DNA of 32,931 nt from positions 1-32,931 of the forward strand of contig JANPKQ010000182.1 of the NCBI GenBank assembly GCA_031426115.1. The letters run 5' to 3'. The notes below the pieces were generated by a model. It did not search any database and was not told the DNA's origin. It saw only the letters and a list, made by a program, of their open reading frames with translations. The translations under genes and the position numbers were made by a program. Position 1 is the first letter of the stretch, and each line of letters starts with the position of its first letter. This DNA comes from Gemmatimonadaceae bacterium. Its GTDB lineage: Bacteria; Gemmatimonadota; Gemmatimonadetes; Gemmatimonadales; Gemmatimonadaceae. Below, one piece after another: positions 2,389-29,365 of this stretch.

Positions 2389-2495
2389 GTGCGTCACGAT
2401 GAAAGGCGTCCAGGTCGAGGGGCCGTCGTTCAACCTACAGGTTCGATGTCCGGCCCTGCAATGGAGGCTCCCTGGCCGTCACGACGAGAGCTTCT

Positions 2496-6958: not shown

Positions 6959-7945
6959 TCAGTGATCAGTGGTCGGTGAGCGAGGCGGGGGCGACATCAT
7001 CGCCGGGCCGGCGGTCGCGCTGGCGACGAAGAGCGTCGGGCCCTTCGCGGCGGAGTCGGCGGGCAGAAGGTGATGGCGAGCAGCGGTGAAACCGGCATCC
7101 TCCAGCCACCCGGTGATCTGCTCCCGGGAGAACCCCTGCCAGAGATGGCCCATTGTGCGTCGGTACTCCTCGCGGTCGTGCGGCGTCATGTCCGCGACGA
7201 GGAGCTTGCCGCCGGGACGCAGCGTCCGTCGCGCCTCCGCCAGCGCCGCGGCGGGATCCTCGACGTAATGCAGGACGAGGAAGAGGATGGCCGCGTCGAG
7301 CGAGCCATCCTCGATCGGAAGCGACTCGAGCCGCCCCCGCTCGAGGCTCACGTTCTCCGCACCGGCGAGCCGCTTTCGCGCCGCGCTCAGCATGGCGGCA
7401 GAATCATCGACCGCAATGACGCGAGCAACGAACGGGGCGAGCGATGCGGTGAGCTGTCCGGTGCCGCAGCCGAGGTCACCGACCGTCCAGCGATCATCGA
7501 GCAGCGCGAGCATGGACAGGAGGTCGGCGCCGTGGCCGAACATCTCCGCTCGCATGCGATCCCACTGGTTCGCGGCCGACGAGAAGAACTCCTGCGACTT
7601 CGACCGCCGCTCGGCGAGCACACTGCGGAGTCGCTGCGCATCCTGCGCCGCCGCCGGCCCCTGCGCGACCTGCTCGCGAACGAGGCTCCACAGGCGTTTT
7701 TCCGCGGGCTCCAACCGTGCGGCCGCCATCGTGTACAAGCGACTCGGTCCGTCAGCGCGGGACACCACCCAGCGTTCGTCGCCGAGGGTCTTGAGGTGCC
7801 GGCTGACCGTGGACTGGGGCATTTGAACGACCGCGCACAGCTCCGAGACCGCCAGCTCGTGGCGTTCCAGCACCAGGAGCATCCGGCACCTGGTGATGTC
7901 GGACAGGGCCGACATTGTATCGAAGATGGAGATCGCGGTGGCCAT
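6959..7945 (-). CDS. ArsR/SmtB-family HTH regulator fused to a SAM-dependent methyltransferase-like domain (SahR-like SAH-responsive regulator candidate)
   Basis: N-terminal ArsR wHTH ([41 protein letters not shown]). C-terminal class-I MTase motif I ([11 protein letters not shown]). It is immediately upstream of, and co-oriented with, ahcY. I place the start at ATG 7945 (MATAISIF), because the longer ORF begins at TTG 7996 and would translate through the operator palindrome. Confidence 0.75.
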
Positions 7946-7946
7946 A

Positions 7947-7996
7947 ATATCCGTATATCCGGATATAAGGATATAGCCTTGGGCGCGGCTGGTCAA
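7947..7996 (-). promoter_or_regulatory. 28-bp near-perfect palindrome ATATCCGTATATCCGGATATAAGGATAT (7947-7974) overlapping a candidate sigma70 promoter (-35 TTGACC at 7996-7991, -10 TATCCT at 7973-7968 on the minus strand)
   Basis: The palindrome matches 26/28 and is centred on CC|GG. It contains nested half-sites ATATCC x2 and GGATAT x2. It abuts the regulator start codon and overlaps the predicted -10 and transcription start. That is the classic autoregulatory ArsR-family operator layout. Confidence 0.6.
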
Positions 7997-8004
7997 GTGG
8001 GGGG

Positions 8005-8316
8005 ACTGACCGCGACTACGTACTGCACTTCACTGCTTACTGCGCACGCACTGCGTACTGGCTACTGCGAACGGGTGCAGGAGGGCGTACCGGGCGGCAG
8101 TGCGTAGTGGTGCGCAGTCCCAGTAGTCGCCCACGGACGGAGCGAACGGCGGTACCGGGCGCCCGCCTTCGGCTTGGCCGGTTGCCCGGATTCCTCCCAA
8201 CGACCCGCCGTTCCGCCTGCCGTGCCCGTCCCGCTCTGGCGGTGGGTACCGAGTACTACTTCGTACGAAGTGCGTGCGCAGTAAGCAGTGCCGGTCCGTA
8301 CGTAGTCGCGGTCAGT
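8005..8316. mobile_element. MITE-like non-autonomous element, copy 1 (312 bp; roughly 55-bp terminal inverted repeats ACTGACCGCGACTACGTAC...ACTGCTTACTGCGCACGCACT)
   Basis: The reverse complement of the right end (..agtgcgtgcgcagtaagcagtgccggtccgtacgtagtcgcggtcagt) matches the left end (actgaccgcgactacgtactgcacttcactgcttactgcgcacgcact) in 19-bp and 21-bp perfect blocks. The internal about 100 bp is about 95% identical to copy 3. Confidence 0.8.
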
Positions 8317-8425
8317 AAAACTCCGAAACCCGCTTCGACGCCCGGGGGTAAGATCTGGCTCGGATGAACGCCAGCCGCCTAGATTGCGGTCACGGCCATT
8401 GCCCGCTGCCCGTGGGAGGACCCGC

Positions 8426-9580
8426 ATGTCACGCCCGGTACTCACGCTTCTGGTCCTCATCGCCCTCCAGCCCGCATGCGTGCGGTCGGAGGCGGTCAGC
8501 GAGTGGCCGCTCATTGCCGAGTCGGGGACGCCGGCTGCCCAGGCGGACTCGAGCTTCGCGACGCTCGTCGCCCGGCTGTCCGAGCCGGGCGGGTATTTCG
8601 ACTCCGACAACCTCGTCTCGAACGAGTTGTCCTACGAGCACGTCCTCGGCGCGATGCGGCGGCTCAAGGTGTCCGGCGGGGCGTACATCGGGGTCGGGCC
8701 CGACCAGAACTACACCTACATCGGAAAGGTTCGGCCGAAGATCGTCTACATGATCGACCTGCGGCGTGACAACCTGCTCCAGCACCTGCTCTACAAGTCG
8801 CTCTTCGACATGGCGCGCAACCGCACCGAGTACCTCGCGCTACTCACCGCGCGGCCGGCGCCGAAGAACATTGCGAGCTGGGATCGCCGCGGCATCGATC
8901 AGGTCCTGGCATACATCGATTCGGTCACCCCGCAGCGTGGGCTCTTCGATTCGACGCGTGCCGCCGTCGCGCGAAAGGCGGGGAGCTACGGCATTCCGCT
9001 CGACGCACGCGACCTCGAGACGATCGCCCGCATCCACGGACGGTTCGCGGCCTCGGGCCTGGATCTCCAGTACGAGAGCCTGAACCGGCCATCGCGGCGC
9101 AACTATCCAACCTTCCGCGAGCTGATCCTCGAGCGCGACCTCGAAGGCATCCAGGGGAACTACTTCATCAGCGAAGACGACTTCCAGTTCGTGAAATCGC
9201 TGCACGCGAAGAACCTGATCGTGCCGGTGGTGGGCAACCTCGCAGGAGGTCACGCGCTCCGCGCGATCGGCCAGGACATCGCGGCGCGTGGCGAGCGGGT
9301 CTCCGTACTGTATGTCTCGAACGTCGAGTTCTACCTCATGCGCGAGGGTGGCTTCGATGCGTTCGCGGAAAACGCGAAGACGCTGCCGCGCAACGAGCGA
9401 AGCGTCATCATCCGCAGCTACTTCAACGGGCCGTACACGTACGGGCACCCGCAGTGGGTCCCCGGCTACTTCAGCACGCAGATCCTCCAGACGCTCGAGT
9501 CCCTCGTGACAGAGTACGCGAAGGGGGGCTACACCGAGTATCTCGACGTCGTCACCAAACACTCTCTCCCGCTTCGCTGA
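8426..9580 (+). CDS. Conserved hypothetical secreted protein (signal peptide; Rossmann-like GVGPDQN ... IVYMIDLRRD motif pair)
   Basis: ATG 8426 follows the SD GGGAGGA at 8414-8420. The signal peptide is MSRPVLTLLVLIALQPACVRSEA. No family was recognised with confidence. Strong GC3 bias supports that it is coding. Confidence 0.6.
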   Translation: MSRPVLTLLVLIALQPACVRSEAVSEWPLIAESGTPAAQADSSFATLVARLSEPGGYFDSDNLVSNELSYEHVLGAMRRLKVSGGAYIGVGPDQNYTYIGKVRPKIVYMIDLRRDNLLQHLLYKSLFDMARNRTEYLALLTARPAPKNIASWDRRGIDQVLAYIDSVTPQRGLFDSTRAAVARKAGSYGIPLDARDLETIARIHGRFAASGLDLQYESLNRPSRRNYPTFRELILERDLEGIQGNYFISEDDFQFVKSLHAKNLIVPVVGNLAGGHALRAIGQDIAARGERVSVLYVSNVEFYLMREGGFDAFAENAKTLPRNERSVIIRSYFNGPYTYGHPQWVPGYFSTQILQTLESLVTEYAKGGYTEYLDVVTKHSLPLR

Positions 9581-9587
9581 CTCCATC

Positions 9588-11531
9588 GTGAACCGACGCT
9601 CGTTCGTTCGCCACGCGACACTCGCCGCCGCGGGATTCGGGATCCTCCGCACGCTTCCCGCCTGCGCCGGCGAGCGGGGCAGCGACGCCGACCGCACCTT
9701 TACCGAGCTTCGCGACCGATACTTCCTTCGCCATCTCGAGCTCAACCCCGTCACCTCGACGTACCTCGGCGGCGACGGCTACAGCCCGACCTTGCGCGAC
9801 ATCAACGGCAAGCTGCGCGACTACCGGCCGGCGGCGATGGAATCCGAGCTGCGATTCTACCGCGACATCCGCGACGCAGTTCGCGGGATCGACGCATCCG
9901 CGCTGTCGTCGATCAACCGGATCGATCAGCAGGTGATCGCAGCGCAGGTCGAGTACCTCATCCGCTTCATCGATGTCCGTCACTATCACCAGCGCGCCAT
10001 CGATACCTACGTCGCCGAGCCGTTCCGCGGGATCGACTGGCAGATTCAGCAGATGCGCACGATCGAGGGCGGCCTGCTCGGTACGGAAGAGGAATGGGAG
10101 TTCGTCATCGCGCGGCTGATGGCGATCCCCGCCTACCTCGGCGTCGCTCGCGACAACATCCTCGCCGGGAAGCGCGCAGGGGTGACGGCCGATTGGCGCA
10201 TGATCGAGCGGGATGGGATCGCGGGGAGCAAGGCCAACGCCGAGTACTTCCGCACGACGCTCCCCGCCTCGGCGAGCACCTTTCTCGGGGAGCGCTCCTT
10301 CGCTCCGGCGCTCCGCGAGCGGGTCACCGCGGCGGGAGCCAGCGCCGCCGGCGAGTACGACCGGTTCGCAGAGATGCTCAATCAGTCGTTCGACATTTCA
10401 GCGAAGGTGGAAGGGTTCTCCGCCGCGGAGCAGGAGTACGAGTGGCGCGTGCGCAACGTGCTTCGCGATCCTCGCAGCGCCGAGATGCTCTACGCGCATG
10501 GAGCGGCGGAGGTCGAGAAGTACACGCAGCGGATCATCGAGATCGCAGGGGTCGTCGCGGCCGAGGCGAAGCTCGACCTGCCGTTCGGGAATCGGGACGC
10601 CGCGAACGCGAGCGTGCGAAAGGTCATGGAGCACCTCTCCAATGACTCGCCGAAGAGCGACGACGAGCTCTTCCAGTGGTATCGCGAGGCGGGAGCCCGC
10701 GCGGTGGCGTACGGGCGCGAGCAGGAGATGTTCGATATACCGAACGATTATCAGCTCGAGCTCGTCCCTACCCCGCCCGTCCTGCGGAGCACGATCGACG
10801 CGGCGTACTATCCTGCCCCGCCGCTCAAGCGCTCCGGTGCCGGCCGGTTCTACCTGACGCCAACCGGAAACGACCCGGCGGCGCTGCGCCAGAACAATCG
10901 CGCGTCGATCGCCGACACCGCGATCCACGAGGGGTTCCCGGGGCACGACTGGGAGTTCCGCTACATGACCGAGCACGCGGACCAGATCCCGAAGGTGCGG
11001 TGGCTGACGCCGGGAGCGGTCGAGGACTCGTCCTCGATGTGGGCCGATTCAATCGCCATGGAAGGCTGGGGCCTCTACGCCGAGGAGCTCATGGCGGAGC
11101 CGAGCGCCAACCGTCCATACGGCTTTTACACCGCGGGCGAGTACCTGTACGAGCTGCAGGGACAGCTGCTTCGCGCTGTTCGTGTCAGGGTGGATGTCGG
11201 GCTGCACACCGGGCGGATGTCGTACGATGAGGCGGTGAGCTACTTCACGGAGAACGTGTCCTTTTATCCGGGCGCCTGCGCGCGTGCAGCGCAGGATCCG
11301 ACTGCACGCGCCATCTGCGACTCGGCGAATCGCGCCATCTACCGCTACTCGAAGTGGCCCACCCAGGCGATCACCTACAACCTCGGCAAGAACGCGATCG
11401 TCGAGCTTCGCGAGGCGTATCGTGCGAAGAAGGGCTCGGCCTACTCCGCGAAGGAATTCCACGAGCGGCTGATGCGAATGGGCTCGATCCCGGTCGGCTT
11501 CTTCAGGGAAAGCTTCCTGGCGGAGGCCTAG
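9588..11531 (+). CDS. DUF885-family protein (predicted metallopeptidase-like, HExxPGH motif), Tat-exported
   Basis: GTG start followed by the twin-arginine motif [17 protein letters not shown]. Contains [11 protein letters not shown], characteristic of DUF885. 647 aa. Confidence 0.8.
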
Positions 11532-11536
11532 CGCGC

Positions 11537-12049
11537 GTGGCGACACCGGCCAATCCGGCCGCCGCGCTGCTTCGCACCTGGCAGCGGCTGCATCACCTTC
11601 CTGGCGGCCGCTGGCTCTTCAGCCGTCTCCTCGGATTCCAGGTTCCGTACACCGGCTCCATCAGGGCGACGGTATTGGAGATGCGGCCCGGCTACGCGCG
11701 GGTCGAGCTCCGCGATCGGCGATCGGTGCGCAACCACCTGCGATCGGTGCACGCAGTCGCGCTCGTCAACCTCGGTGAGGTCACGAGCGGCCTGGCGATG
11801 CTCAGCGCCACGCCACCAACGGTTCGCGGCATCGTCACGCGGCTCGAGACGGAGTACCTCAAGAAGGCGCGCGGAACGCTCATCGCTGCGTGTCAGTGCA
11901 CCGTGCCCGGGATCTCGGAGCCGACTGATCTCGAGATCCGCGCCGACATCAGCGATGCAGCGGGCGACATCGTTGCCCGTGTCACGGCGCGCTGGCGTTT
12001 GAGTCCGACGAGCGATGCGGGCGAGCGCAAGCCGGCGGCGCGTCAATGA
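11537..12049 (+). CDS. Hotdog-fold protein (DUF4442/PaaI-thioesterase-like)
   Basis: In-frame GTG at 11537, 5 nt after the DUF885 stop. [28 protein letters not shown] resembles the DUF4442 N-terminus. The alternative start is ATG near 11680. It ends in an ATGA overlap with the next gene. Confidence 0.5.
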
Positions 12050-14051: not shown

Positions 14052-14346
14052 CGTGGATCAGACGAGACAGAAACCCGCCCCGTCACGCGAGAATCCGGGA
14101 CGATCCCAGCGCGGTGAAGGCTTGTGAGACGTCCCCGCGGAACGCACGTTCTCCCGAACGGGGCGGGCCCCGTCAGGACCGCTTTCCGGTCAGCGCGGGT
14201 GACGCATGTCACGATGCAGTCGGGGGTTGGCGCGCGGCTGAAGTGCGCGACCAGGAAGCGTCCCACTTGGCGCGCGCGCGCGGCGCGGGCGTTGCATGAG
14301 TGGCCGGGAGACACACACCCAGAAATGGCGAGGAGAGCGGTTCATC

Positions 14347-14625
14347 ATGTCGTATCGAACTTTTCTGGATGCAGATGGCGAGGAGTGGCAGGCCTGGGAC
14401 GTGTTTCCCAGCACCGATGTCCGGCGCACGCTCGTCGGGGGCTGGCTTACCTTCCAGTCGCAACGGGAGAAGCGGCGCCTCGCGCCCGTTCCGCTCTACT
14501 GGATGAGCGCCGACGAGGAAGAGCTCCGACGCCTGCTGCGATCCGCCAAGCCGGCGGTCGAGCGCACGGGCGCGCGTGCGGAAATGCCGAACGACACCCC
14601 GTTGGAGATTCCGCCCGCTCCCTGA
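14347..14625 (+). CDS. Small hypothetical protein (92 aa)
   Basis: ATG 14347 (MSYRTFLDADGEEWQAWDV...) is preceded by the SD GGAGAG about 9 nt upstream. GC3 is moderately high. No family recognised. Confidence 0.35.
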   Translation: MSYRTFLDADGEEWQAWDVFPSTDVRRTLVGGWLTFQSQREKRRLAPVPLYWMSADEEELRRLLRSAKPAVERTGARAEMPNDTPLEIPPAP

Positions 14626-14802
14626 CGGTCAACGGGGCAATTTCCTCGACTCGGGACGAGGGGGCGCCGAGCGCTCGAGACGTGCGCTCCGAGGCGGCAG
14701 CATCGACGTTCACAACTCCTGCAACTGCGAACACGGTCAGCGGCCCGAGAGCCGCGCGGTGCAGTGCGAAGTCGGAAGGGAGCGCGTGGCTCGCTCTGGA
14801 CC

Positions 14803-14836
14803 GTCGAGACTCGCGGCGGCGTCAGCGAGTCTCGAC
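14803..14836 (-). terminator. Hairpin gtcgagactcgc-N10-gcgagtctcgac (12-bp perfect stem) 9 nt downstream of the rpsU stop
   Basis: Read directly. No U-tract, as is common in high-GC genomes. Confidence 0.4.
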
Positions 14837-14844
14837 GAGCGGAA

Positions 14845-15033
14845 CTACGGGCGCGCGGCGGTGCGCTTGCGGCGACGAGCGGCGGCGGCCTTGAGCTGGC
14901 GAGCTTCGCTCGGCTTCACATAATGCCGCCGGCGCCGAAGATCCTTGAGGATCCCGGCCTTGAGCAGCTTCTTCTTGAAAACCTTGAGCGCCCAGTCGAG
15001 CCGATCGTTCTCGTCGAGCTTCACTTCGATCAT
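14845..15033 (-). CDS. rpsU: 30S ribosomal protein S21
   Basis: MIEVKLDENDRLDWALKVFKKKLLKAGILKDLRRRRHYVKPSEARQLK has the S21 signature and is followed by a basic tail. 62 aa. Confidence 0.9.
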   Translation of the reverse strand: MIEVKLDENDRLDWALKVFKKKLLKAGILKDLRRRRHYVKPSEARQLKAAAARRRKRTAARP

Positions 15034-15157
15034 TGTGATACCGGAGAAGGAGTTGCCGTGATTCCGCGGGTGCTGCGAGAGAAGCGAACAGCCGGATCGA
15101 TGTGACTCGACCCGGCTGTCGTGCCGTGGCAGAAGTTATCTGCCGCGGCCGGCTACG

Positions 15158-15370
15158 TCAGCCGCCCAGCTTCGTGACGTTCTCGGCGGCAGGACCCTTC
15201 TGGCCCTGCACGATGTCGAACTCGACGCGCTCGCCTTCGGCGAGGGTCTTGAAGCCACTGCCCTGGATGGCAGAGTGGTGAACGAAGCAGTCCTTCTGGC
15301 CGTTCTCGGGCGTGATGAAACCAAAGCCCTTCGCGTCATTGAACCACTTCACTTTGCCGGTCGTACGCAT
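15158..15370 (-). CDS. Cold-shock protein, CspA family
   Basis: [31 protein letters not shown] contains the RNP1/RNP2 motifs. 70 aa. SD AGGGG upstream. Confidence 0.95.
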
Positions 15371-15763
15371 TCTGTACCCCTGATCAAGAAATTGTTGTTC
15401 GGAGTCCGGTAACGCCGTACAGACCGTGGGTCCGTGCTGACGCGATGTGCCGCGCTCCTGTGCTGAAGGGCGATATGCCCATCAGCGTGGCGATGCCATG
15501 AATAGAAAAGAGGCCCGCGAAAACCAGGCCCCTAATGTCTTCATCGGAACTTGTCCACGCTCAAAGCGTGCATCGCCGTCATAACGGTAGTACGATCGGG
15601 CCCGGAATGCAAGAGGAGTTTTGGGAGGATTTCAGGGGCTCCCGGAGCAGCCGCGGCGGCGGGTTCGCGACAGGCGCCGATCAATTCAGTTGGCAGCTCA
15701 TAACATGTTGCTATAAAACAACTTGGCAATACCGCAAATGCGCCACCGCTGAGTTGCCGCGCT

Positions 15764-15896
15764 GAGAACTGACAACTGTGAACTGACAACCGTTCACTTT
15801 CGTTTTTCGACTTCCGATCCACCCCGGATGGTTTGGCGGATGGATCATGAGCGGGAAACGAAGTGAACGGTGGTCAGTTAACAGTTTTCAGTTCTC
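15764..15896. terminator. Large imperfect inverted repeat (39-nt arms 15764-15802 and 15859-15896, 35/39 matching) immediately 3' of the GlsB-family gene
   Basis: The left arm is gagaactgacaactgtgaactgacaaccgttcactttcg. The reverse complement of the right arm is gagaactgaaaactgttaactgaccaccgttcacttcg. The arms flank a 56-nt spacer. The region has lower GC. Confidence 0.6.
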
Positions 15897-15910
15897 GGTT
15901 CCCGGAGCCG

Positions 15911-16162
15911 TCAGGACTTCCGGCGGACCAGCCGGATGATGAACAGCAGCACCACCGCGCCGACGAAGGCAACGAAAATCGTCCCCGCCAGACCGGCGAA
16001 GGGAGTCCCCACCCCGAGCGTGGCAAAAATCCACCCGCCGATGAATGCGCCAACGATGCCGATGATGATGTCGCCGATGATGCCGAACCCTCCGCCCATC
16101 ACGAACGAGGCAAGCACACCGGCGATGAGGCCGACGATGATCCACCAGAGCAGTCCGTCCAT
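15911..16162 (-). CDS. GlsB/YeaQ/YmgE-family stress-response membrane protein (transglycosylase-associated)
   Basis: MDGLLWWIIVGLIAGVLASFVMGGGFGIIGDIIIGIVGAFIGGWIF fits the family consensus. Start placed at ATG 16162, which follows the SD GGGGGA. The ORF extends to 16186. Confidence 0.85.
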   Translation of the reverse strand: MDGLLWWIIVGLIAGVLASFVMGGGFGIIGDIIIGIVGAFIGGWIFATLGVGTPFAGLAGTIFVAFVGAVVLLFIIRLVRRKS

Positions 16163-16343
16163 GTGTCCCCCATGCGTCATGGTCAACTTCGCGAGATAGG
16201 TCGAGCGGTCGCAACTCGCATGCCCCAGACCCGTGGACTGTTGCCCACGGCTCCGCGCTTGACTTCACTTCACGGTTCGGATTGTCTCCGATCCGGCGTC
16301 CGCCGCGCGGATGCCGCCACTTTTACCCACGGGATGGAGAGTC

Positions 16344-17243
16344 ATGCAGCTCGCGATGATCGGACTTGGCCGCATGGGCGGCAACATGGTCGAGCGCCTC
16401 ATCAAGGGCGGCCATGAGCTCGTCGTCTGGGATCGGAGCGCCGACGCCATCGGCAAGTCCGTCGAGGATGGCGCAAAGGCGGCGCGCGATCTCGCCGATG
16501 TCTGCGCAAAGCTCCGGTCGCCGCGCATCATCTGGATCATGGTGCCCGCCGGTGCACCGGTGGACGAGACGATCGCAGCGCTGCGCCCGAACCTCTCGAA
16601 GGGCGACATTCTCATCGATGGCGGCAACTCCAACTTCCACGACACGATGCGTCGCGCGGAGGAGCTGCGCTCGAGCGGCATGGAGTTCGTGGACTGCGGC
16701 ACCAGCGGCGGCATCTGGGGGCTCGCCAACGGCTACTGCCTCATGGTCGGAGCAAGCCCATCGGCGTTCGCGACCTGCGAGCCGATCTTCCGGACGCTCG
16801 CGCCCGAATCCGGCTTCGCGCATGTCGGCCCGTCGGGAGCAGGCCACTACGTGAAGATGATCCACAACGGCATCGAGTACGGAATGCTCCAGGCGTACGC
16901 GGAGGGATACGAGATCCTGCACGCATCGAAGAGCTTCGATCTCGACCTGCACCAGATCGCGGCGGTCTGGAACCGCGGCAGCGTCGTCCGCTCGTGGCTC
17001 AACGAGCTTGCGGAACGCGCCTTCGCGAAGGAAGCGGACCTCGAATCACTCAAGGGCTTCGTCGGCGACTCGGGCGAGGGGCGGTGGACGGTGCAGGAGG
17101 CAATCGACATCGATGTCCCCGCACCGGTCATCACGCTGTCGCTCCTCACTCGCCTTCGCTCGCGGCAGCCCGACTCCTTCTCGGCGAAAGTCATCGCGGC
17201 GCTGCGGAACGAGTTCGGCGGCCACGCAGTGCAATCGAAATGA
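16344..17243 (+). CDS. gnd: 6-phosphogluconate dehydrogenase (decarboxylating), short (about 300 aa) form
   Basis: [19 protein letters not shown] contains the NADP GxGxxG motif. [19 protein letters not shown] is the 6PGDH signature. SD GGAGAG upstream. Confidence 0.88.
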
Positions 17244-20835: not shown

Positions 20836-20910
20836 AAAGCTGGCATGGGCTCTGCCACCGTTAGCGGCACGATAAATCCACGCCTGCTCCCGCCCGCACC
20901 GAGCCCAGCC

Positions 20911-22446
20911 ATGCACAGCGATTCCGGCGACACCGTCTCCCTCTGGATGGCGACGGCCGACATGCCATCGTATCCGCCGCTCACCGAGAACGCGACCGCC
21001 GATGTCTGCATCGTGGGCGCGGGGATCGCCGGGATGACGACGGCGTACATGCTGACACAGGCGGGACGCAGCGTCGTCGTCCTCGATGATGGACCGGTGG
21101 GCGGCGGCGAGACGGGCCGGACGACCGCGCACATCGCCAACGCGATGGACGACCGCTTCCACCGCCTCGAGCAGCTGCACGGCGAAGAGGGATCGCGCAT
21201 CGCGGCGGCGAGCCACGGCGCGGCAATCGACCGCATCGAGGCAATCGTACGCGCCGAGGGGATCGACTGCGCCTTCGAGCGCGTCGATGGCTATCTCTTT
21301 CTTGGCGGGGACGACAAGGAGGAAGAGCTCGCGCGGGAGCTCGAGGCAACGCATCGCGCCGGCCTCACCGACGTCGAGCCCCTCGATCGCATCCCGAAGC
21401 TGCCATTCGACTCCGGACCCTGCCTGCGCTTTCCGCGGCAGGCACAGTTTCATCCCCTCGCGTATCTCGCCGCGCTCGCGCGCATCGTGACGCGGAACGG
21501 CGGGAAGATTCACACGGGCTCACACGTGGCCGGGTTCGAAGCGAAGCCGCGCCGCCCGCAGGTGAAGACGAGCGACAAGAAGACGGTGACCGCCGACGCC
21601 GTGGTGTTCGCGACCAACAGCCCGATCAATGATTGGGTGAAGATGCACACCAAGCAGGCGCCGTATCGCTCCTTCGTCATCGGCGCCCGCATTCCGCGCG
21701 GTTCGGTGCCGAAGGGGTTGTACTGGGACACGCCCGACCCGTACCACTACATCCGTATCCAGGCCGACGTCGGTGGCTCCGATGTACTGCTCGTCGGCGG
21801 CGAGGACCACAAGACGGGCCAGAAGGACGATGCTCCCGAGCGGTTTGCGCGCCTCGAGGCGTGGACCCGCCAGCGGTTCCCAATGGTGCAGAGCGTCGAC
21901 TATCGCTGGTCGGGCCAGGTGATGGAACCGGTGGACCACATGGGATTCATCGGGCGCAATCCCGGGAGTGATGGAAAGAACGTCTATATCGCCACCGGCG
22001 ATTCGGGACAGGGGATGACCCACGGCACCATCGCCGGCATCCTCATCACCGACCTCATCGTCGGCCGGGAGAACGCGTGGGAGTCCCTCTACGACCCCTC
22101 ACGCATCTCGCTCAAGTCGGGGATGGAGTTCGCGAAGGAGAACCTCAACGTCGCGGCGCAGTTTCGCGATTACGTCACGCCGGGCGACGTCGCATCGCCG
22201 GATGAGATCCCGCCCGGAACGGGCGCGGTCATCCGCCGTGGCCGGCACAAGGTTGCTGTCTACCGCGATGACTCGGGCACGGTGCACGAACGCTCCGCCG
22301 TCTGCACGCATCTCTACTGCATCGTGGACTGGAACTCGACGGAGAAGACCTGGGATTGCCCCTGTCACGGCTCGCGCTTCGACCCGCTCGGCAAGGTCGT
22401 GAACGGACCCGCGATCGCTCCGCTCGCAGAGATCGAGGAGGAATAG
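20911..22446 (+). CDS. FAD-dependent oxidoreductase (DAO-like) fused to a C-terminal Rieske [2Fe-2S] domain
   Basis: N-terminal DVCIVGAGIAGMTTAY dinucleotide motif. C-terminal CTHLYC...CPCHGSRF Rieske ligands. Start placed at ATG 20911 (MHSDSG). The ORF opens at 20845, immediately after the MITE. Confidence 0.8.
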   Translation: MHSDSGDTVSLWMATADMPSYPPLTENATADVCIVGAGIAGMTTAYMLTQAGRSVVVLDDGPVGGGETGRTTAHIANAMDDRFHRLEQLHGEEGSRIAAASHGAAIDRIEAIVRAEGIDCAFERVDGYLFLGGDDKEEELARELEATHRAGLTDVEPLDRIPKLPFDSGPCLRFPRQAQFHPLAYLAALARIVTRNGGKIHTGSHVAGFEAKPRRPQVKTSDKKTVTADAVVFATNSPINDWVKMHTKQAPYRSFVIGARIPRGSVPKGLYWDTPDPYHYIRIQADVGGSDVLLVGGEDHKTGQKDDAPERFARLEAWTRQRFPMVQSVDYRWSGQVMEPVDHMGFIGRNPGSDGKNVYIATGDSGQGMTHGTIAGILITDLIVGRENAWESLYDPSRISLKSGMEFAKENLNVAAQFRDYVTPGDVASPDEIPPGTGAVIRRGRHKVAVYRDDSGTVHERSAVCTHLYCIVDWNSTEKTWDCPCHGSRFDPLGKVVNGPAIAPLAEIEEE

Positions 22447-22555
22447 CGGGGGCCGGCGCGCCTGCCATGGCGTCGGCGTGCGCATCGCGCCAACGTACAG
22501 CCCCGCGCGTCGAGGCCTCGACGGTGATGCGGCGTCCCCAGTCCTTTCGCTGACC

Positions 22556-23293
22556 GTGATCGAAGTCAACCAGCTCACGAAGCTCTACGGCGACCTCACC
22601 GCCGTCGATGGGCTGTCGTTCAGCGTCGCGCCCGGAGAGATCCTCGGACTCGTGGGCCCCAACGGTGCCGGGAAGACCACCACCCTGACGAGCCTCGCGG
22701 GGATCATCATCCCGACCAGTGGGACGATCCGGATCGGAGGCCACGACATCGCGCGCGAGGGAGTGAGCGCGAAGTCCCGGCTCGCGTTCATTCCGGATGA
22801 GCCGCACCTCTTCGACTACCTCACGGTGGAGGAGCATCTGCGTTTCGTCGGACGGCTGTACCGCGTGCCCGACGCGCCCGAGCGCATTCCGCCTCTCCTG
22901 CAGGAGCTCGAGCTGACGGAGAAGACCAAGGCGCTGCCCGGGGAGCTGTCGCGCGGCATGCGGCAGAAGCTCGCGATCGCGTGTGGCCTCATCCACTCGC
23001 CGACCGCCGTCATCCTCGACGAGCCGCTCACGGGACTCGATCCCGCAGGCATCCGGAAGATGAAGTCCACGATCTCCGCGCGCGCGCGCGCCGGCGCCGC
23101 CGTAATCCTGAGCTCGCACCTCCTCCACCTCGTCGAGGAGCTGTGCACGCGGCTGCTCGTCATCAAGCGCGGACGGGTCGTCGCCCTCGGGACCATCGCG
23201 GAGATCATCGCGGTGCGGCCGGAGCTCACCGGGCTCGGACTCGAGGATGTATTTCTAGCGCTCACAGGCGAACCGGGAGAAGCGCTTCGGTGA
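22556..23293 (+). CDS. ABC transporter ATP-binding protein
   Basis: Walker A GPNGAGKTT, signature LSRGMRQKLAIA, Walker B ILDEP. In-frame GTG at 22556 (VIEVNQLTKLYGD). Confidence 0.88.
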   Translation: MIEVNQLTKLYGDLTAVDGLSFSVAPGEILGLVGPNGAGKTTTLTSLAGIIIPTSGTIRIGGHDIAREGVSAKSRLAFIPDEPHLFDYLTVEEHLRFVGRLYRVPDAPERIPPLLQELELTEKTKALPGELSRGMRQKLAIACGLIHSPTAVILDEPLTGLDPAGIRKMKSTISARARAGAAVILSSHLLHLVEELCTRLLVIKRGRVVALGTIAEIIAVRPELTGLGLEDVFLALTGEPGEALR

Positions 23294-25041
23294 GCGAGGC
23301 CCGCGCGGTGTTCGGCGTCTTCGCGTACCTCACGACGACGTCGATGAGGAACCGCTTTCGCGCGAAGGTGAAGCAGCTGAAGAACCCGCGATACTCGGTC
23401 GCGCTGCTCTTCGGGGTCGCGTACATCTGGTTCTTCCTCTTTCGTCCGCCGGGCGCGGGATCCGCGCGGCCCAACCTGTTCGGAAGTGCCAACATCCAGC
23501 TCATCGCATCGCTCGGGGTGTTCATCCTCTTCATGCGCTGGTGGCTCTTCGGCAACGACCGCTCGGCGCTCGCCTTCAGCCCCGCGGAGATCCAGTTTCT
23601 CTTCCCCGCACCCATCACGCGCCGGGCGCTGATCCAGTTCAAGCTGCTGCGGAGCCAGATTGCGATCGTCTTCAACGCGATTCTCTGGGTGCTCATCTTC
23701 GGCCGCGGTGGTGCGGAGTTGCCAGCCGTGCTCCGGGTGATGTCGGTCTGGGCGATGCTGAGCATCTTCACCCTGCATCGCCTCGGCGCGACGATCGTAC
23801 GCGCGTCGACGACGCAGCACGGGAAGGCGGGAGCCCGGCGCAACGTCGTGGCGCTCATCGTCTTCGGCGCGGTCGCCGCGGGCCTCATCTGGACGGCGAT
23901 CACCGGCTACTCGAGCGTGCGCAATGCGTCCGGCATCAGGCAGGTGACCGAGGCGATCACGACGCTGCTGCGCCAGCCCGTGCCGCACGCGCTGCTCGCG
24001 CCCTTCCGGGTGCTGCTGGCTCCGACCTTTGCCAACACCATCGCCGACTGGGCGCCGAAGTTCGCCATTGTCGTCGTCGGCCTGGCGCTCCACTACGTCT
24101 GGGTGCTGCGCACCGAGCTGGCGTTCGAGGACGCGGCGGTCGAAGCATCGGCGGCCCGGGCCAAGCGCATCGAGGCGATGAAGGCGCGCCGCTCGGGCAA
24201 CGCGGCGCCGGTGCGCGCCGGCAACCGCACCTGGATCCCCCTCGCGCCCAGCGGACATCCGGCGATGGCGATCCTGTGGAAGAACATCCTCGCGCTATCG
24301 CGAACCTCCGGGTCATCGATGGTGGGTGTGATGGTCATCATCTCGACCTTCGTCATCATGGCGGTCTTCATCTCCTCCCAGGGACGAACCGGCTTCGCGT
24401 CGCTCCTCGGCTACTTCGCCCTGGCGATGATGGGATTCAGCGTCCTCGTCGGCGCCCGCTTCGTCCGGATCGACCTGCGACAGGACCTCGTCCACCTTCG
24501 ACTGCTGCGCACCTATCCCATCGACGGGTCCGCGCTCGTCGCCGCCGAAATCGCCGGCTCGACGATCGTGCTGACGGCAATCCAGATGGGCCTCCTGCTC
24601 TTCGCCCACGTCGCGCTCCTCTCCGCGCCCGAGGTGCCGCTGGATCCATGGTCGCGTTGGCTGATTGTCGCAGCGGCACCACTGGCCCTGCTCGTGTTCA
24701 ACGCCGCCACGGTCACGATCCAGAACGGCGCCGCCCTGCTCTTCCCCGCGTGGGTGAAGCTCGGCACGGCGAAGAGCGGCGGTATCGAGGTGCTCGGCCA
24801 GAGCCTCCTGACGATGGCCGCGTCGCTCGCGGCGCTCGCGCTCGCGCTGGTCCCGCCAGCGATCGCCGGGGGCGCGACATTCCTCGCGGTGACGACGGTG
24901 TTCGACGGAACCGCCATTGCCGGCGCCGCGGCGGGATGCGCGATCGGTGTTCTGGCGCTCGGAATCGAGGTCGCCATGGCGATGATGATGCTCGGCGAGG
25001 TGTTCGAGCGAGGAGAGATGGTCGGGGTCCCCGCGCCCTAG
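23290..25041 (+). CDS. Polytopic membrane protein, putative ABC-exporter permease partner
   Basis: Its GTG overlaps the ABC stop (GTGA). About 580 aa with at least 10 hydrophobic helices and no ATPase motifs. The architecture resembles the 'putative ABC exporter' family. Confidence 0.55.
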   Translation: MSEARAVFGVFAYLTTTSMRNRFRAKVKQLKNPRYSVALLFGVAYIWFFLFRPPGAGSARPNLFGSANIQLIASLGVFILFMRWWLFGNDRSALAFSPAEIQFLFPAPITRRALIQFKLLRSQIAIVFNAILWVLIFGRGGAELPAVLRVMSVWAMLSIFTLHRLGATIVRASTTQHGKAGARRNVVALIVFGAVAAGLIWTAITGYSSVRNASGIRQVTEAITTLLRQPVPHALLAPFRVLLAPTFANTIADWAPKFAIVVVGLALHYVWVLRTELAFEDAAVEASAARAKRIEAMKARRSGNAAPVRAGNRTWIPLAPSGHPAMAILWKNILALSRTSGSSMVGVMVIISTFVIMAVFISSQGRTGFASLLGYFALAMMGFSVLVGARFVRIDLRQDLVHLRLLRTYPIDGSALVAAEIAGSTIVLTAIQMGLLLFAHVALLSAPEVPLDPWSRWLIVAAAPLALLVFNAATVTIQNGAALLFPAWVKLGTAKSGGIEVLGQSLLTMAASLAALALALVPPAIAGGATFLAVTTVFDGTAIAGAAAGCAIGVLALGIEVAMAMMMLGEVFERGEMVGVPAP

Positions 25042-25093
25042 GGCGCGCCCGCGCGCTGCCGGGCTCGCGGAGTTGGGGATCGGAGGACATCCT

Positions 25094-25489
25094 ATGACCA
25101 TGGCCAAGACTCCTTCAGCGCCGGCGCATCCGAACATCGGACCGCGCGGCTGCCAACGTCGCAAGGGAATGTCCTGGGTGTGGCTTGCGCTCGCCGTCGT
25201 GCTCATCGGCGTCCTTGCCTGGCGTGACGCACCACCTCTCTGGTATTCGCTCACCGCGATCCCGTTCCTGTTCGCATCGCTCGGCGTCTTCCAGGCGCGC
25301 GAGCAGACGTGCGTGTTCCTCGCCGGTGTCGGGAGCCGGGACCTGGACGCAGGGGCCGAGCGCGTGACCGATCCGCAGGTGCTTTCCGTCATGCGCCAGC
25401 GGGCGATGGTCGTGTGGCTGCGCGCGACGCTCGCCACGATCGGGCTCGCCGGTTTCACGGTGCTCATCGCGCTCGCGCGCCAGGGATGA
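25094..25489 (+). CDS. Small hypothetical membrane protein (2-3 TM helices)
   Basis: High GC3. It lies between the permease and the kinase, and its stop overlaps the kinase start (ATGA). The start is uncertain (25073, 25094 or 25171). Confidence 0.4.
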   Translation: MTMAKTPSAPAHPNIGPRGCQRRKGMSWVWLALAVVLIGVLAWRDAPPLWYSLTAIPFLFASLGVFQAREQTCVFLAGVGSRDLDAGAERVTDPQVLSVMRQRAMVVWLRATLATIGLAGFTVLIALARQG

Positions 25490-26862
25490 CGACGCTGCCT
25501 CACATCGCGCCCGATCGGCTGTCGCTCGATACCGGGGAGCATTGGAGTGGCCTCGCGATGGGCGCGGACGACGCAGGGAGCGCAGGGGAGCATGACCCTG
25601 CTCGCCAGCTGCTCGCGCTCCAGCGGGAGCGCGCGGAGCGGCAGCTCAACGCCGTGCGAGGCACCGTCCTGCTGCTGCTCGCGGCGGCGGCGCTCGTCTA
25701 CGCACCGAGCCTGACACCCGGGCTCAACCGGGCGAACGTGCTCGTTCTCGTTCCTTCGCTATCCTGGACGATCGCGCAGTACGCGCTGTTCTACCGGCGC
25801 GCCCGCCTGCCGGGGTGGCTCGCGATCGTGAACCCGCTCGTCGATGTCGCGGGCGTCACTGCGATCATGGCCGCGTACGCGCTCCAGCAATCCGCGGCGC
25901 TCGCGCTCGGTTCGCCGATCTTCCTCGCCTACTTCGCGATTCTCGCTGCTCGCCCAATCGCATCATCCACCTTCAAGGCCGCCGCCGTCGCCGCCCTGAC
26001 CGTGCTCGCCTATGCAGCGCTGCTCTGGTTCCTCATCACGAGCGGACGCGTGGAGGTCGTGGCGAATCCGGTGAGCGCGATGACCGGAGGCGCGATCTCA
26101 TCGCTCGACGAGGGGGCGAAGCTCCTGCTGCTCGCGGTCGCGGGCGCGATCGCGACGTACGCGACGGCGTGGCACGAACGCGTCGCGACGAGCTACTACC
26201 GCGAGAGCGGGACGAGGGCTCGGCTCGAGACGCGTCTGGCGCGCGCGCAGCTCCAGAGCCTCAAGCTGCAGATGCATCCGCATTTTCTCTTCAACACCCT
26301 CAACAGCATCACGACGCTCATCACCGAGGACCCGCTGGCGGCCGAGCGAATGGTGACCGGGCTGAGCGAGCTGTTGCGCATCTCGCTGCGAACCGCGAGC
26401 GAGCAGGAGGTGCCTCTCGAGCGAGAGCTGGAGGTGCTGCGCCACTATCTCACGATCCAGGAGATCCGGTTTCACGACCGGTTGTCGGTGGCACTCGACG
26501 TCGATCCTGACACGCTCCACGCGATGGTGCCGAATCTGATCCTGCAGCCTCTCGTGGAGAATGCGATTCGGCACGGCATCGGCCCGCGCGCGACCGGCGG
26601 CTCGATCGAGGTGCGTGTCACGCGGGTTGGCGACAAGCTACGCATGCGCGTGCACGACGATGGCGTCGGAACCCCCGCCGACGCGATGCCGGTTCGCGAA
26701 GGGACGGGCATCGGCAACACTCGCGCGCGACTGGGCCATCTCTACGGCACGCGCCACCGCTTCGAGATCGGTGGCGCGCCGGGCGCGGGGTTCACGGTGA
26801 TGGCGGAGATCCCGTACCGGGTGGCGTCCGAGGTAGACGGGGACGCTTCCCAACCGGCCTAG
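25486..26862 (+). CDS. LytS/YehU-type sensor histidine kinase (polytopic N-terminal region, His_kinase HPHFLFNTLN box, HATPase_c)
   Basis: Contains LQMHPHFLFNTLNSITTLI and LILQPLVENAIRHG, plus a G-box. No response regulator gene is adjacent. Confidence 0.85.
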   Translation: MTTLPHIAPDRLSLDTGEHWSGLAMGADDAGSAGEHDPARQLLALQRERAERQLNAVRGTVLLLLAAAALVYAPSLTPGLNRANVLVLVPSLSWTIAQYALFYRRARLPGWLAIVNPLVDVAGVTAIMAAYALQQSAALALGSPIFLAYFAILAARPIASSTFKAAAVAALTVLAYAALLWFLITSGRVEVVANPVSAMTGGAISSLDEGAKLLLLAVAGAIATYATAWHERVATSYYRESGTRARLETRLARAQLQSLKLQMHPHFLFNTLNSITTLITEDPLAAERMVTGLSELLRISLRTASEQEVPLERELEVLRHYLTIQEIRFHDRLSVALDVDPDTLHAMVPNLILQPLVENAIRHGIGPRATGGSIEVRVTRVGDKLRMRVHDDGVGTPADAMPVREGTGIGNTRARLGHLYGTRHRFEIGGAPGAGFTVMAEIPYRVASEVDGDASQPA

Positions 26863-26877
26863 CGGTGGATCGAGGGA

Positions 26878-28662
26878 CTACTTCCGCGCTCGCTCCGGTC
26901 GCGTCTCGTCCGCATCGGTTCGGGGCGTCAACGCCGTGACGGCGGGTGCCGCGACGCCATCGCCCGATACGACGCCGCTTCCCCGCACTTCGACATCGGC
27001 GCCGTTGCCCTCAGGGTTCAGCTTGCCGAAGTAGCCCGGCAGCTCCACACCGGCGATATCGCGAAGCACGCTCATCATCGGAGGAAGGGTGTTGGCCATG
27101 TTCTGGAGGAACCCCGACGTTCCGCCTCCCTGCCCGCCCCCGTCCCAGACAACGATCTTGTCGAACTTGATGTTCGAGATGGCCTTCGCCGACGTCTCGG
27201 CGAGCGTGTCGAGGTGCTCGATCATCATGAGCTGGAAGGCCTCCTTCGCGCCGCCGCACGCCTGCACAACTTCGCGCAGCGCATCGGCCTTCTTCGCGAG
27301 GATCTCGTACTCGCCACGCGCCTGCGCCTCCAGCTTCATGTAGATCGCGGCCGCATCGGCCTCGGCGGCAATGCGAACGCTCTGCGCCGCGGCCTCGGCC
27401 TGAACGATCGTGCGCGCCTTCTCGGCCTTCGCCGGCGCCTCGACCTCGGCACGTCGCTCCGCTTCGACGCGCTCGGCATCGGCGATTGCCGCGCGAGCCA
27501 TCGCGCGGTTCTGCGCTTCCTGGACGTATGCCTCGGCCTCGCGCTTCTTCGTCTCCGACAGTTGATAGGCTTCGGCCTCGCGAACCTGGAGCTGCGCGCG
27601 GGTTGCCGCGATCAGTCCCTGAGACTCCGCCTCACCTTCGATGGCCTTCGCCTCGGCGCTCGCGACGAGAATGCGCTTCTTCTGCTCGGCGTCCTTGATC
27701 TGCGACTCGCGCTCGAACGCGGCGCGCTGCTCACCGATGCGCTGCTCCTTGTCGAGCTCCGCGACGCGGACCGCCTGGGTGCGCTGACCTTCCTTGATCT
27801 GCGCGTCGCGCTCGAAGACCGCCATCTGCTCGCCGACCTTCTGCTCCTTGTCGAGCTCCGCCACGCGCACGGCCTTTTCCCGGTCGGCCTCGCGCATGCC
27901 GATCTCGCGGAACTTCATCGCGTTCGCGACCTGCACGATACGCTCGCGGTCCGCCTCGGCCACACGCACCTCGCCGAGCTTCTCCTGCTCGGCCACATCG
28001 CCGCGCGCCTGCTGCACGGCGGTGGACGCCGCCTTCTTCCCGATCGCCTCGATGTAGCCGGAGTCGTCGCGGAGGTCGGTGATGTTCACGTTGATGAGGA
28101 CGAGCCCGATCTTCTTGAGCTCCGGCTCGAGCGACTGCTGCACGCGGTGAAGGAACGCATCGCGATCCTTGTTGATCTCCTCGATGCGCATCGACGCGAT
28201 GACCTGACGTAGCTGGCCGAAGATGATGTCCTGTGCCTGCCGCTTGATCTGGTCGTGGGTGAGGCTCAGCAGGCGGATCGCCGCGTTTTGCCTGACTTCT
28301 GCCTCCGTGCCGATGGCGACGGTAAACACGCTCGGAACGGCAACGCGGATGTTCTCGAAGGAGAGCGCGTCCTTGAGCGGAATGTCGATCTGGATCGGCT
28401 CGAGGCCGAGATAGGCGTATTCCTGGATTACCGGCCAGACGAAGGCACCGCCGCCGGAGATGCACTTCGCGCTCTCGCCGCCGCCGACCCGTCCGGAGAT
28501 CACCAGCACCTTGTTCGACGGACAGCGCTTGTAGCGTGCGACGAACAGGAAGAGCAGGCTGAGGAAGATGACGACAGCGAGCGCGGGGCCCGCGATTGCC
28601 CACATCGGAATCCCGACGACGGAATCGGGAGTGATCTGGAACAGGAAGAGATCAAACGACAT
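26878..28662 (-). CDS. Flotillin-family (SPFH/band-7) protein with a long EA-rich coiled-coil region
   Basis: Start MSFDLFLFQITPDS, N-terminal TM helix, SPFH domain, then a repetitive region with AEAK/EAE repeats (YqiK/FloT-like). The ORF extends to 28698. Confidence 0.88.
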   Translation of the reverse strand: MSFDLFLFQITPDSVVGIPMWAIAGPALAVVIFLSLLFLFVARYKRCPSNKVLVISGRVGGGESAKCISGGGAFVWPVIQEYAYLGLEPIQIDIPLKDALSFENIRVAVPSVFTVAIGTEAEVRQNAAIRLLSLTHDQIKRQAQDIIFGQLRQVIASMRIEEINKDRDAFLHRVQQSLEPELKKIGLVLINVNITDLRDDSGYIEAIGKKAASTAVQQARGDVAEQEKLGEVRVAEADRERIVQVANAMKFREIGMREADREKAVRVAELDKEQKVGEQMAVFERDAQIKEGQRTQAVRVAELDKEQRIGEQRAAFERESQIKDAEQKKRILVASAEAKAIEGEAESQGLIAATRAQLQVREAEAYQLSETKKREAEAYVQEAQNRAMARAAIADAERVEAERRAEVEAPAKAEKARTIVQAEAAAQSVRIAAEADAAAIYMKLEAQARGEYEILAKKADALREVVQACGGAKEAFQLMMIEHLDTLAETSAKAISNIKFDKIVVWDGGGQGGGTSGFLQNMANTLPPMMSVLRDIAGVELPGYFGKLNPEGNGADVEVRGSGVVSGDGVAAPAVTALTPRTDADETRPERARK

Positions 28663-29224
28663 TGGACAGCTCCTTCGTGATTGGGTCGGGAACCACATCG
28701 ACCGTATCGGGCCCGACGACGTCCACGACCAGAATTGGTGCGCCCGTCGGCAGTGCGGCCTGGGATGTCACGGCCTGGTATTCGACGGTGCGGTTCTGGA
28801 GGGTGAGGATCACTTTCCCGGCTCCCTTCCGGTCGCCGGGGATCGCGAGGTACACGGTGCCGGTCGCTCCGACGGCCCCATCGATCAGCACCGAGCCATC
28901 GTCCTCGAGCCGCAGCATCCAGCGTGTCACCAGGGCCGTGCCGATCGTCGCGCCGAGTCCGAGCACGATCCCGAGCGGGAGCGCTGCCAGGAGTCCGAGC
29001 CCGGTCGCCAGCCCCGCCATGCCGCCGACACCGAAGAAGCCCAGGCCCGCCGAGATGGCGCGGACGCTGAGAAGGTTCAATCCTTCGGCTGCACCGTGAC
29101 CCACGTGGCCGTCGTGGTGGTGGACATCGACATCGTGATGGGCGATGCCGAGCACGCCGAGGATCAGCTGCACCACAAGGATGGCGCCGCCGAGGATTGC
29201 GCAGGTAACGAAGAAGGTCTGCAT
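28652..29224 (-). CDS. NfeD-like/YqiJ-family membrane protein (flotillin partner)
   Basis: MQTFFVTCAILGGAILVVQLILGVLG, then the His-rich segment HHDVDVHHHDGHVGHG, then a C-terminal OB-fold-like region. It overlaps the flotillin start by 11 nt. Confidence 0.65.
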   Translation of the reverse strand: MQTFFVTCAILGGAILVVQLILGVLGIAHHDVDVHHHDGHVGHGAAEGLNLLSVRAISAGLGFFGVGGMAGLATGLGLLAALPLGIVLGLGATIGTALVTRWMLRLEDDGSVLIDGAVGATGTVYLAIPGDRKGAGKVILTLQNRTVEYQAVTSQAALPTGAPILVVDVVGPDTVDVVPDPITKELSNVV

Positions 29225-29365
29225 GGCAAACAGAAGATGCGAACGGCGCAGGGGGGCCGCTAGGAGCGTCCGTGTCTCTTCGTTGCCTCGTTCGCGCAGG
29301 GGACCGGAGGCTTCACGGCTGCCAACTCTCGATGCCTGTGCCAGTTGCACCCACCTGATGCGACG

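Follow-up and report, generated by a model that had tools for sequence, protein, structure and literature searches.

Conserved linkage of a PF16962 ABC exporter and a PF06580 sensor kinase without an adjacent response regulator in a Gemmatimonadota clade

Introduction

When a sensor histidine kinase is encoded behind an ATP-binding cassette (ABC) exporter and no response regulator accompanies it, do kinase and exporter form a unit or are they chance neighbors, and to what would the kinase signal? This question is raised by a locus of a Gemmatimonadaceae bacterium (assembly GCA_031426115.1, contig JANPKQ010000182.1), of which positions 1-32,931 of the forward strand were analyzed; this whole stretch of DNA, with ~66% guanine plus cytosine (GC), is hereafter the window. 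The open reading frame (ORF) listing and the codon-position GC analysis show four co-directional ORFs with gene-like codon-position GC (Table 1), which encode an ABC ATPase and a permease (together, the pump), a small membrane protein and a sensor histidine kinase. A sequence-only reading had taken them for a tightly overlapped four-gene module, similar to Bce-like systems and with a LytS-type kinase.

Table 1. Position and content of the pump-kinase locus within the window.
Feature	Position	Strand	Description
Upstream intergenic region	22447..22555	+	Conserved block and GC-rich palindrome; candidate promoter/operator of the pump operon
ABC transporter ATPase (gene A)	22556..23293	+	245 amino acids, GTG start at 22556, DrrA/ABC-2 type
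Permease (gene B)	23290..25041	+	583 amino acids, PF16962 "putative ABC exporter", ~12 transmembrane helices
Small membrane protein (gene C)	25094..25489	+	131 amino acids, ~3 helices, unannotated family
Sensor histidine kinase (gene D)	25486..26862	+	458 amino acids, PF06580 and HATPase_c

Results

Conservation of the ATPase, permease and kinase genes

The order ATPase-permease-kinase was found in seven lineages: that of the window and those of loci L003, L005, L011, L012, L094 and L095. L003, whose permease is 71% identical to that of the window, matches the window in all four genes and in the wider synteny. L005 (54%) shows the ATPase, the permease, a lipoprotein-like gene on the opposite strand and the kinase, and the same insert is found in L095. 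L011 (47%) contains ATPase, permease and kinase with a 1-nucleotide gap and no small gene, and in L012 (46%), which also has no small gene, the trio is intact amid unrelated flanks, with 4-nucleotide overlaps at both junctions. The trio is also kept in L096, where the upstream gene differs. The sequence-only reading depended in part on the gene order being conserved in relatives, and this order is conserved, even where the flanks are unrelated; its four-gene module, however, is reduced to a core of three genes (ATPase, permease and kinase), the small protein being restricted to the subclade of the window. The insert (11840-12487 in L005 and 1640-2236 in L095, both on the minus strand) is conserved in this one sublineage; its product has ~200 residues, including a signal peptide and a Cys, and belongs to no Pfam family.

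A metagenome scan with the permease alignment gave 80 loci, which were screened by profiles for the ATPase, the permease, the small protein, the kinase and a regulator. L094 and L095 (56-70% identity) carry the kinase and the truncated contigs L097 and L098 the small gene, and all the other scan loci (35-44% identity) show only ATPase and permease. The absence of the kinase is real in 39 of them because at least 1.5 kb of downstream sequence is present. The pump also lacks the kinase in L006 (43%) and L176 (46%). The co-occurrence of permease and kinase across genomes, which had been proposed as a check, thus holds within one clade, and outside it the 39 evaluable loci of the permease family PF16962, together with L006 and L176, are without a kinase. 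In L176, the region 7405-11746 shows a RES-domain gene and an AbiEii gene between the gene of a 361-residue ABC ATPase and that of the PF16962 permease; both resemble toxin-antitoxin parts inserted into a transporter operon.

Trees were generated by the neighbor-joining method for 122 kinases and 100 permeases, as distance trees without bootstrap support. All the pump-linked kinases, that is, the window group, the L005/L095 group, L011 and L012, fall in one clade; the kinase-linked permeases, too, all group in one clade, to which no kinase-less locus belongs. The branching order is the same in both trees, with L011 and L012 basal, followed by the L005 group and then by the window group. Because both linked sets are single clades with congruent order, this indicates a single recruitment followed by joint inheritance, down to 45% identity of the permease and 64% of the kinase. 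Judged by these comparisons, the pump-kinase unit is real, evolutionarily stable and restricted to one clade of Gemmatimonadota.

Gene junctions

Successive overlaps of GTGA, ATGA and ATGA had been claimed. Two of them are present, GTGA between the ATPase and permease genes (23290-23293) and ATGA between the small gene and the kinase gene (25486-25489), but the permease/small-gene junction is a 52-nucleotide gap between the permease TAG (25039-25041) and the small-gene ATG (25094), with a ribosome-binding site, GGAGGA, at 25081-25086, seven bases before this ATG. Overlaps of four bases are frequent in GC-rich operons and prove little alone; their weight lies in conservation across lineages. 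In a simple scan, neither intergenic gap of the module showed a terminator-like site; the two matches of the scan fall within the coding regions of permease and kinase and are not above chance expectation. The same scan found no sigma-70-like promoter, and neither Rfam families nor tRNAs were present in the corresponding scans. A module without intergenic terminator-like sites would be consistent with co-transcription. The claim of one transcript fails for L005 and L095; because a conserved opposite-strand gene separates permease and kinase in these two loci, co-transcription is dispensable.

The ATPase and the permease

The ATPase matches Pfam ABC_tran (E-value 1.9e-30) and its best NCBIfam match is drrA (2e-59). 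The Walker A (GPNGAGKT), signature (LSRGM), Walker B (ILDEP) and H-loop motifs are present and conserved in the orthologues. DrrA-subfamily ATPases power ABC-2 exporters. The permease passes the gathering threshold of PF16962 (ABC_export) with 53.4 bits vs 29.7, covering profile positions 4-504 of 531, and its homologues bear the same precomputed PF16962 annotation. The AlphaFold2 model of the permease (72 homologues, predicted local distance difference test (pLDDT) 85.9, predicted template modeling score 0.83) predicts that it is a 12-helix protein with two fused type V (ABC-2 fold) transmembrane domains; an ABC-2 type fold, present here as two fused domains, and a DrrA-like ATPase are what characterizes a type V exporter. 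No sequence-level match was found between the permease and any PDB chain, and profile-profile comparison of its two halves found no similarity between them, so that the internal duplication shows only in the fold. PF16962 is not mentioned in any paper found by a literature search.

The top Foldseek match of the permease model is Rv1217c-Rv1218c of Mycobacterium tuberculosis (PDB: 8K1M/8K1O/8K1P), a type V ABC exporter (PMC11406275) that also has both transmembrane domains in one polypeptide and a separate homodimeric ATPase. It belongs, however, to a different Pfam family, with only ~14-15% sequence identity to the permease, and no associated kinase is described for it (PMC11406275). The permease presumably works with a homodimer of the ATPase and, by analogy with type V exporters, the substrate of the pump is probably a lipophilic or membrane-active compound.

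The small membrane protein

The small protein shows the motifs NIGPRG..RR and FQAR..TCV.LA..G.R.LD.G.E in the alignment of its family. No Pfam or NCBIfam family was found for it, nor for ten family members. An exhaustive search gave 380 representative clusters (50% identity) at an E-value of 1e-3 or below, with members of ~120 residues, among which N14, R23, G64, Q67, T72, C73, V74 and A77 are near-invariant (proteins P0241-P0390 included). Among the fetched loci, the gene is limited to the subclade of the window and is also carried by the truncated contigs L097 and L098. As far as the gene layout tells, the small protein is a lineage-specific insert between permease and kinase, predicted to be translationally coupled to the kinase.

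Architecture of the kinase

The N-terminus of the kinase is disordered and precedes six membrane helices, whose loops do not exceed 20 residues; the dimerization and histidine phosphotransfer (DHp) domain of PF06580 and HATPase_c come next. The polytopic, loop-poor membrane region that had been proposed was thus recovered (about six helices) both by topology prediction and in the model. Pfam matches were obtained for PF06580 (E-value 3e-26; 92.1 bits vs a cut-off of 25.2) and HATPase_c (1e-8), and the protein has the features of the PF06580 family, a DHp domain with the His box and an HATPase_c domain with N and G boxes. His266 in HPHFLFN, N359, D391xGxG and G406/G408 are invariant or nearly so among 66 homologues; by its residues, the kinase looks active, that is, catalytically intact. 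In the AlphaFold2 model (pLDDT 82.8), residues 206-281 form one unbroken helix that joins the last membrane helix to the DHp domain. The nearest solved structure is the kinase domain of GanS (E-value 1e-23 by sequence and 2.5e-11 by fold).

What defines LytS kinases is the presence of 5TM-5TMR_LYT and GAF domains (PMC5552118). No HAMP or GAF domain was found in the kinase by Pfam or in the model, and its membrane domain (residues 1-248) has no Pfam match even at an E-value up to 10. The "LytS-type" label is therefore right for the DHp family only: because 5TM-5TMR_LYT (PF07694) and GAF are both absent, even at E-values up to 10, this is not a LytS kinase in the strict sense. Of the features of the LytS/YehU group (HPK8), the 5TM-5TMR_LYT input, the GAF domain and the adjacent LytTR regulator are all absent.

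Absence of a regulator and relatives of the kinase

That no response regulator is present was borne out, since Pfam found no Response_reg or LytTR domain in the plausible genes of the 33-kb window. No response regulator was found within 10 kb in L003, L005 and L012 either, which makes four lineages with the window. As a baseline we used 80 generic PF06580 kinase loci from reference genomes, 79 of them evaluable for a regulator. These loci came from a scan with the kinase alignment that picked up generic PF06580 motifs, matched only C-terminal parts of proteins in many phyla and did not recover the orthologues. The statement that this type of kinase is usually paired with a LytTR regulator held well, a gene with Response_reg and LytTR domains being directly adjacent in 70 of the 79 loci. 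A PF16962 permease was near none of the 80 kinases. Against this baseline, the missing regulator is a genuine and unusual trait of the locus.

Three kinases of Gemmatimonadaceae kinase-LytTR pairs (P0148, P0195 and P0235) are 62-65% identical to the window kinase over ~90% of its length; the six-helix membrane domain is shared, and the DHp domain is almost the same. They differ in having a Response_reg and LytTR gene directly downstream and no PF16962 pump. In the kinase tree they are placed in three other clades. Closest to the pump-linked clade, as its immediate sisters, are P0140, which has neither an adjacent regulator nor a pump, and P0166, which has no pump and no regulator in sight; as its contig ends ~330 nucleotides past the kinase, the absence of the regulator is less secure in P0166. 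Because both sisters lack an adjacent regulator and also the pump, the orphan state did not result from the association with the pump, and the loss of the regulator probably preceded this association. In the tree, the regulator-less branch that includes the kinase is nested within a set of canonical kinase-LytTR pairs. A likely history is that it split from such a canonical pair and lost the adjacent regulator, after which one branch settled behind the pump.

The kinases of the linked clade are set apart at only 12 positions, five of them in the DHp domain (of 110 DHp positions), and these are scattered and conservative. Given so few conservative differences, the DHp surface that docks a LytTR-type receiver seems unchanged. 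A LytTR partner is plausible, as the paired relatives are linked to LytTR regulators and the DHp domain is almost identical between the orphan and paired clades. Clade-specific residues were also considered as an altered interface and were rejected, being few, scattered and conservative.

Conserved block upstream of the pump

The region upstream of the ATPase shows a conserved block, GCCATGGC...GCCAACGTACAGC, at 22489-22501 (also rendered GCCATGGC...GCCAACGTWCAGC) and, 3' of the GCCAACGTACAGC block, a perfect 16-bp GC-rich palindrome, CGTCGAGGCCTCGACG, at 22508-22523. In the alignment, the window, L003 and L096 all keep block and inverted repeat, 35-70 nucleotides 5' of the start of the ATPase gene; L003 and L096 show the same block and, at the same place, an inverted repeat with an 8-bp stem. 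The block motif is unique to this position in the three window-clade loci with an upstream region (L003, its near-duplicate L004 and L096), and no further occurrence was found in the fetched loci. The block is probably part of the pump operon, because L096 keeps it despite a different upstream gene. Block and palindrome could be an operator, a hairpin of the 5' untranslated region or a terminator of the upstream gene. A sigma-54 promoter, an extracytoplasmic function sigma factor promoter and LytTR-style direct repeats were sought by eye and rejected, the spacings being inconsistent between orthologues.

Neighboring genes

The gene following the kinase is convergent, as had been noted: a flotillin/SPFH gene located at 26878-28698 on the opposite strand, 3' of the kinase. 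Its product (606 residues) is a flotillin-like SPFH protein, and the gene overlaps that of a 232-residue membrane protein without a Pfam family, which occupies the usual place of the NfeD partner. This pair (26878-29350, minus strand), convergent to the kinase, is syntenic in L003 and L005. Directly 5' of the pump (20845-22446, plus strand) lies a gene for a fused DAO flavin adenine dinucleotide-dependent oxidoreductase and Rieske [2Fe-2S] protein. It is syntenic in L003, L005 and L011 and absent from L012, L096 and all the unlinked pump loci; being confined to the syntenic lineages, it was rejected as a member of the operon.

Elsewhere in the window, Pfam found peptidase M2, a MacB/FtsX permease, DUF885 and G6PD. 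Homologues that bear a taxon name point to Gemmatimonadota or Gemmatimonadaceae. The peptidase gene (538-2433, minus strand) encodes a full-length bacterial homologue of angiotensin-converting enzyme (Peptidase_M2, E-value 8e-231). The GC content dips to 0.58 at 15000-16000, vs ~0.66 elsewhere, with no tRNA or Rfam match, and the ORFs adjoining this dip, 14124-14894 and 15863-16417, are without a Pfam match.

Discussion

A proposed mechanism for the pump-kinase unit

What the kinase could do behind the pump may be explained by pump-coupled sensing via a distant LytTR regulator, a reading that is plausible but unproven and whose chance we put somewhat below even. The kinase would be made in a fixed ratio with the pump, would lie beside it in the membrane and would read the transport cycle or the substrate load, with the last membrane helix running into the DHp domain. 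It would then phosphorylate a LytTR-type regulator encoded elsewhere, most likely that of a paralogous kinase-regulator pair or else an orphan LytTR regulator, and the regulator would adjust the expression of this operon and possibly of other genes. That the kinase may assemble with the pump and read it is suggested by the coupled or nearly coupled junctions of L012 and L011, by the coupling of the small gene to the kinase in the window and by a loop-poor membrane domain wired to the DHp domain. The full version of this scenario, in which a Gemmatimonadota lineage independently evolved transporter-coupled (flux or occupancy) sensing, with a membrane complex of PF16962 exporter and PF06580 kinase that gave up its own regulator and shares the LytTR regulator of a paralogous kinase in a branched circuit of two kinases and one regulator, we consider unlikely.

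Several observations count against pump-coupled sensing. The partner LytTR regulator was found neither in the window nor in any 10-kb flank, and orphans are not rare in the PF06580 family, nine of the 79 baseline kinases having no adjacent regulator. The sister kinases P0140 and P0166 likewise show neither an adjacent regulator nor a pump, and the same membrane domain occurs in regulator-paired and in pump-less kinases. Most PF16962 pumps have no kinase, and in L005 and L095 permease and kinase are split by a gene on the opposite strand. Finally, adjacency is not proof of co-sensing, because LnrJK does not require its neighboring ABC exporter, LnrLMN, in order to sense, and this exporter dampens signaling (PMC7472640).

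This Lnr precedent leads to another reading, in which the kinase senses a membrane-active compound or a membrane state alone through its six-helix domain, the pump being only a co-expressed effector that clears the stimulus and thereby dampens signaling, and the regulator acting in trans. The membrane domain is nearly unchanged in canonical paired kinases and in pump-less orphans, which must sense without a pump, and L005 and L095 tolerate the inserted gene, both as expected if the kinase senses alone. However, the coupled or nearly coupled permease/kinase junctions of L012 and L011 fit stoichiometric assembly better than a loose effector, and no known Lnr or Bce system has its kinase gene downstream within the pump operon; we regard this reading as rather doubtful. 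The same inserted gene would also be tolerated if the kinase had landed beside the pump once, by neutral hitch-hiking, and served a distant regulator with another regulon, functionally unrelated to the pump. Every linked locus belongs to one clade and so to a single event, the wider synteny, in which the DAO-Rieske gene precedes the pump and the flotillin gene follows the kinase, is common to four lineages, and the remaining permease family has no kinase. Nevertheless, neutrality hardly accounts for a trio that persists with 4-nucleotide overlaps in L012, where all the flanking genes are different, that is kept in L096 despite a different upstream gene and that lasts over a divergence down to 45% permease identity while its neighbors were reshuffled, and this makes it decidedly unlikely.

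The tight junctions, together with the lack of a regulator within 10 kb in four lineages, might also suggest that no regulator is involved and that the pump is under direct control of the kinase or of its ATP-binding domain, for example through binding or phosphorylation of a pump component. The His box and the DHp surface are, however, as in the regulator-paired relatives, which argues for ordinary phosphotransfer, and orphan sisters without a pump exist; no precedent for such action is known in the PF06580 family, and we consider it very improbable.

The best-documented cases of pump-assisted sensing so far are those of the BceAB-type transporters of Bacillota. If the coupling of pump and kinase were physical, such sensing would have evolved a second time, with another transporter fold and another kinase family, in a poorly studied soil phylum; if the adjacency were neutral, the locus would be an ordinary one. 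The conserved link gives a lead on two little-studied families, the PF16962 pumps and the six-helix input domain of the kinase, which has no Pfam family, and an orphan kinase that branches off from canonical pairs is informative about the branching and insulation of two-component pathways.

Comparison with known systems

In both BceRS-BceAB and this locus, the genes of an ABC transporter lie next to that of an intramembrane-sensing kinase whose extracellular loops are minimal, and the kinase reads transporter activity, which is established for Bce and a proposal for this locus. The resemblance to Bce-like systems is one of logic only, since none of the testable features that define Bce were found. 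BceB is a permease with FtsX domains and a large extracellular domain, whereas the permease of the window is a fused type V protein of PF16962 without FtsX/MacB character. BceS is a HisKA kinase with two membrane helices and an adjacent OmpR-type regulator, whereas the window kinase is a six-helix member of PF06580 without a regulator nearby, and its gene is located downstream within the pump operon. Both exporter and kinase are thus of families unrelated to Bce, as the sequence-only reading had pointed out. Comparison of the kinase model with the BceS chain 8g3a_D gave low TM-scores (0.31/0.40; the aligned residues were not inspected).

LnrJK-LnrLMN of Bacillus subtilis also has a polytopic sensor kinase beside an ABC exporter handling membrane-active compounds (PMC7472640). 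In that system, however, the kinase has its own adjacent regulator, LnrK, and LnrJK induces lnrLMN, whereas none is adjacent here, and the kinase and regulator families differ. BtsS/BtsR and YpdA/YpdB of Escherichia coli share with this locus the PF06580 DHp domain, and they combine it with LytTR-type regulators and the control of transporters (PMC5552118). Their kinases have 5TM-5TMR_LYT and GAF inputs, both absent here, and adjacent regulators, and the transporters that these systems control are secondary carriers, which are regulated targets and not operon partners. The locus of the window is best described as a known theme, an ABC exporter with an intramembrane-sensing kinase, played with new parts, and it does not contradict established principles.

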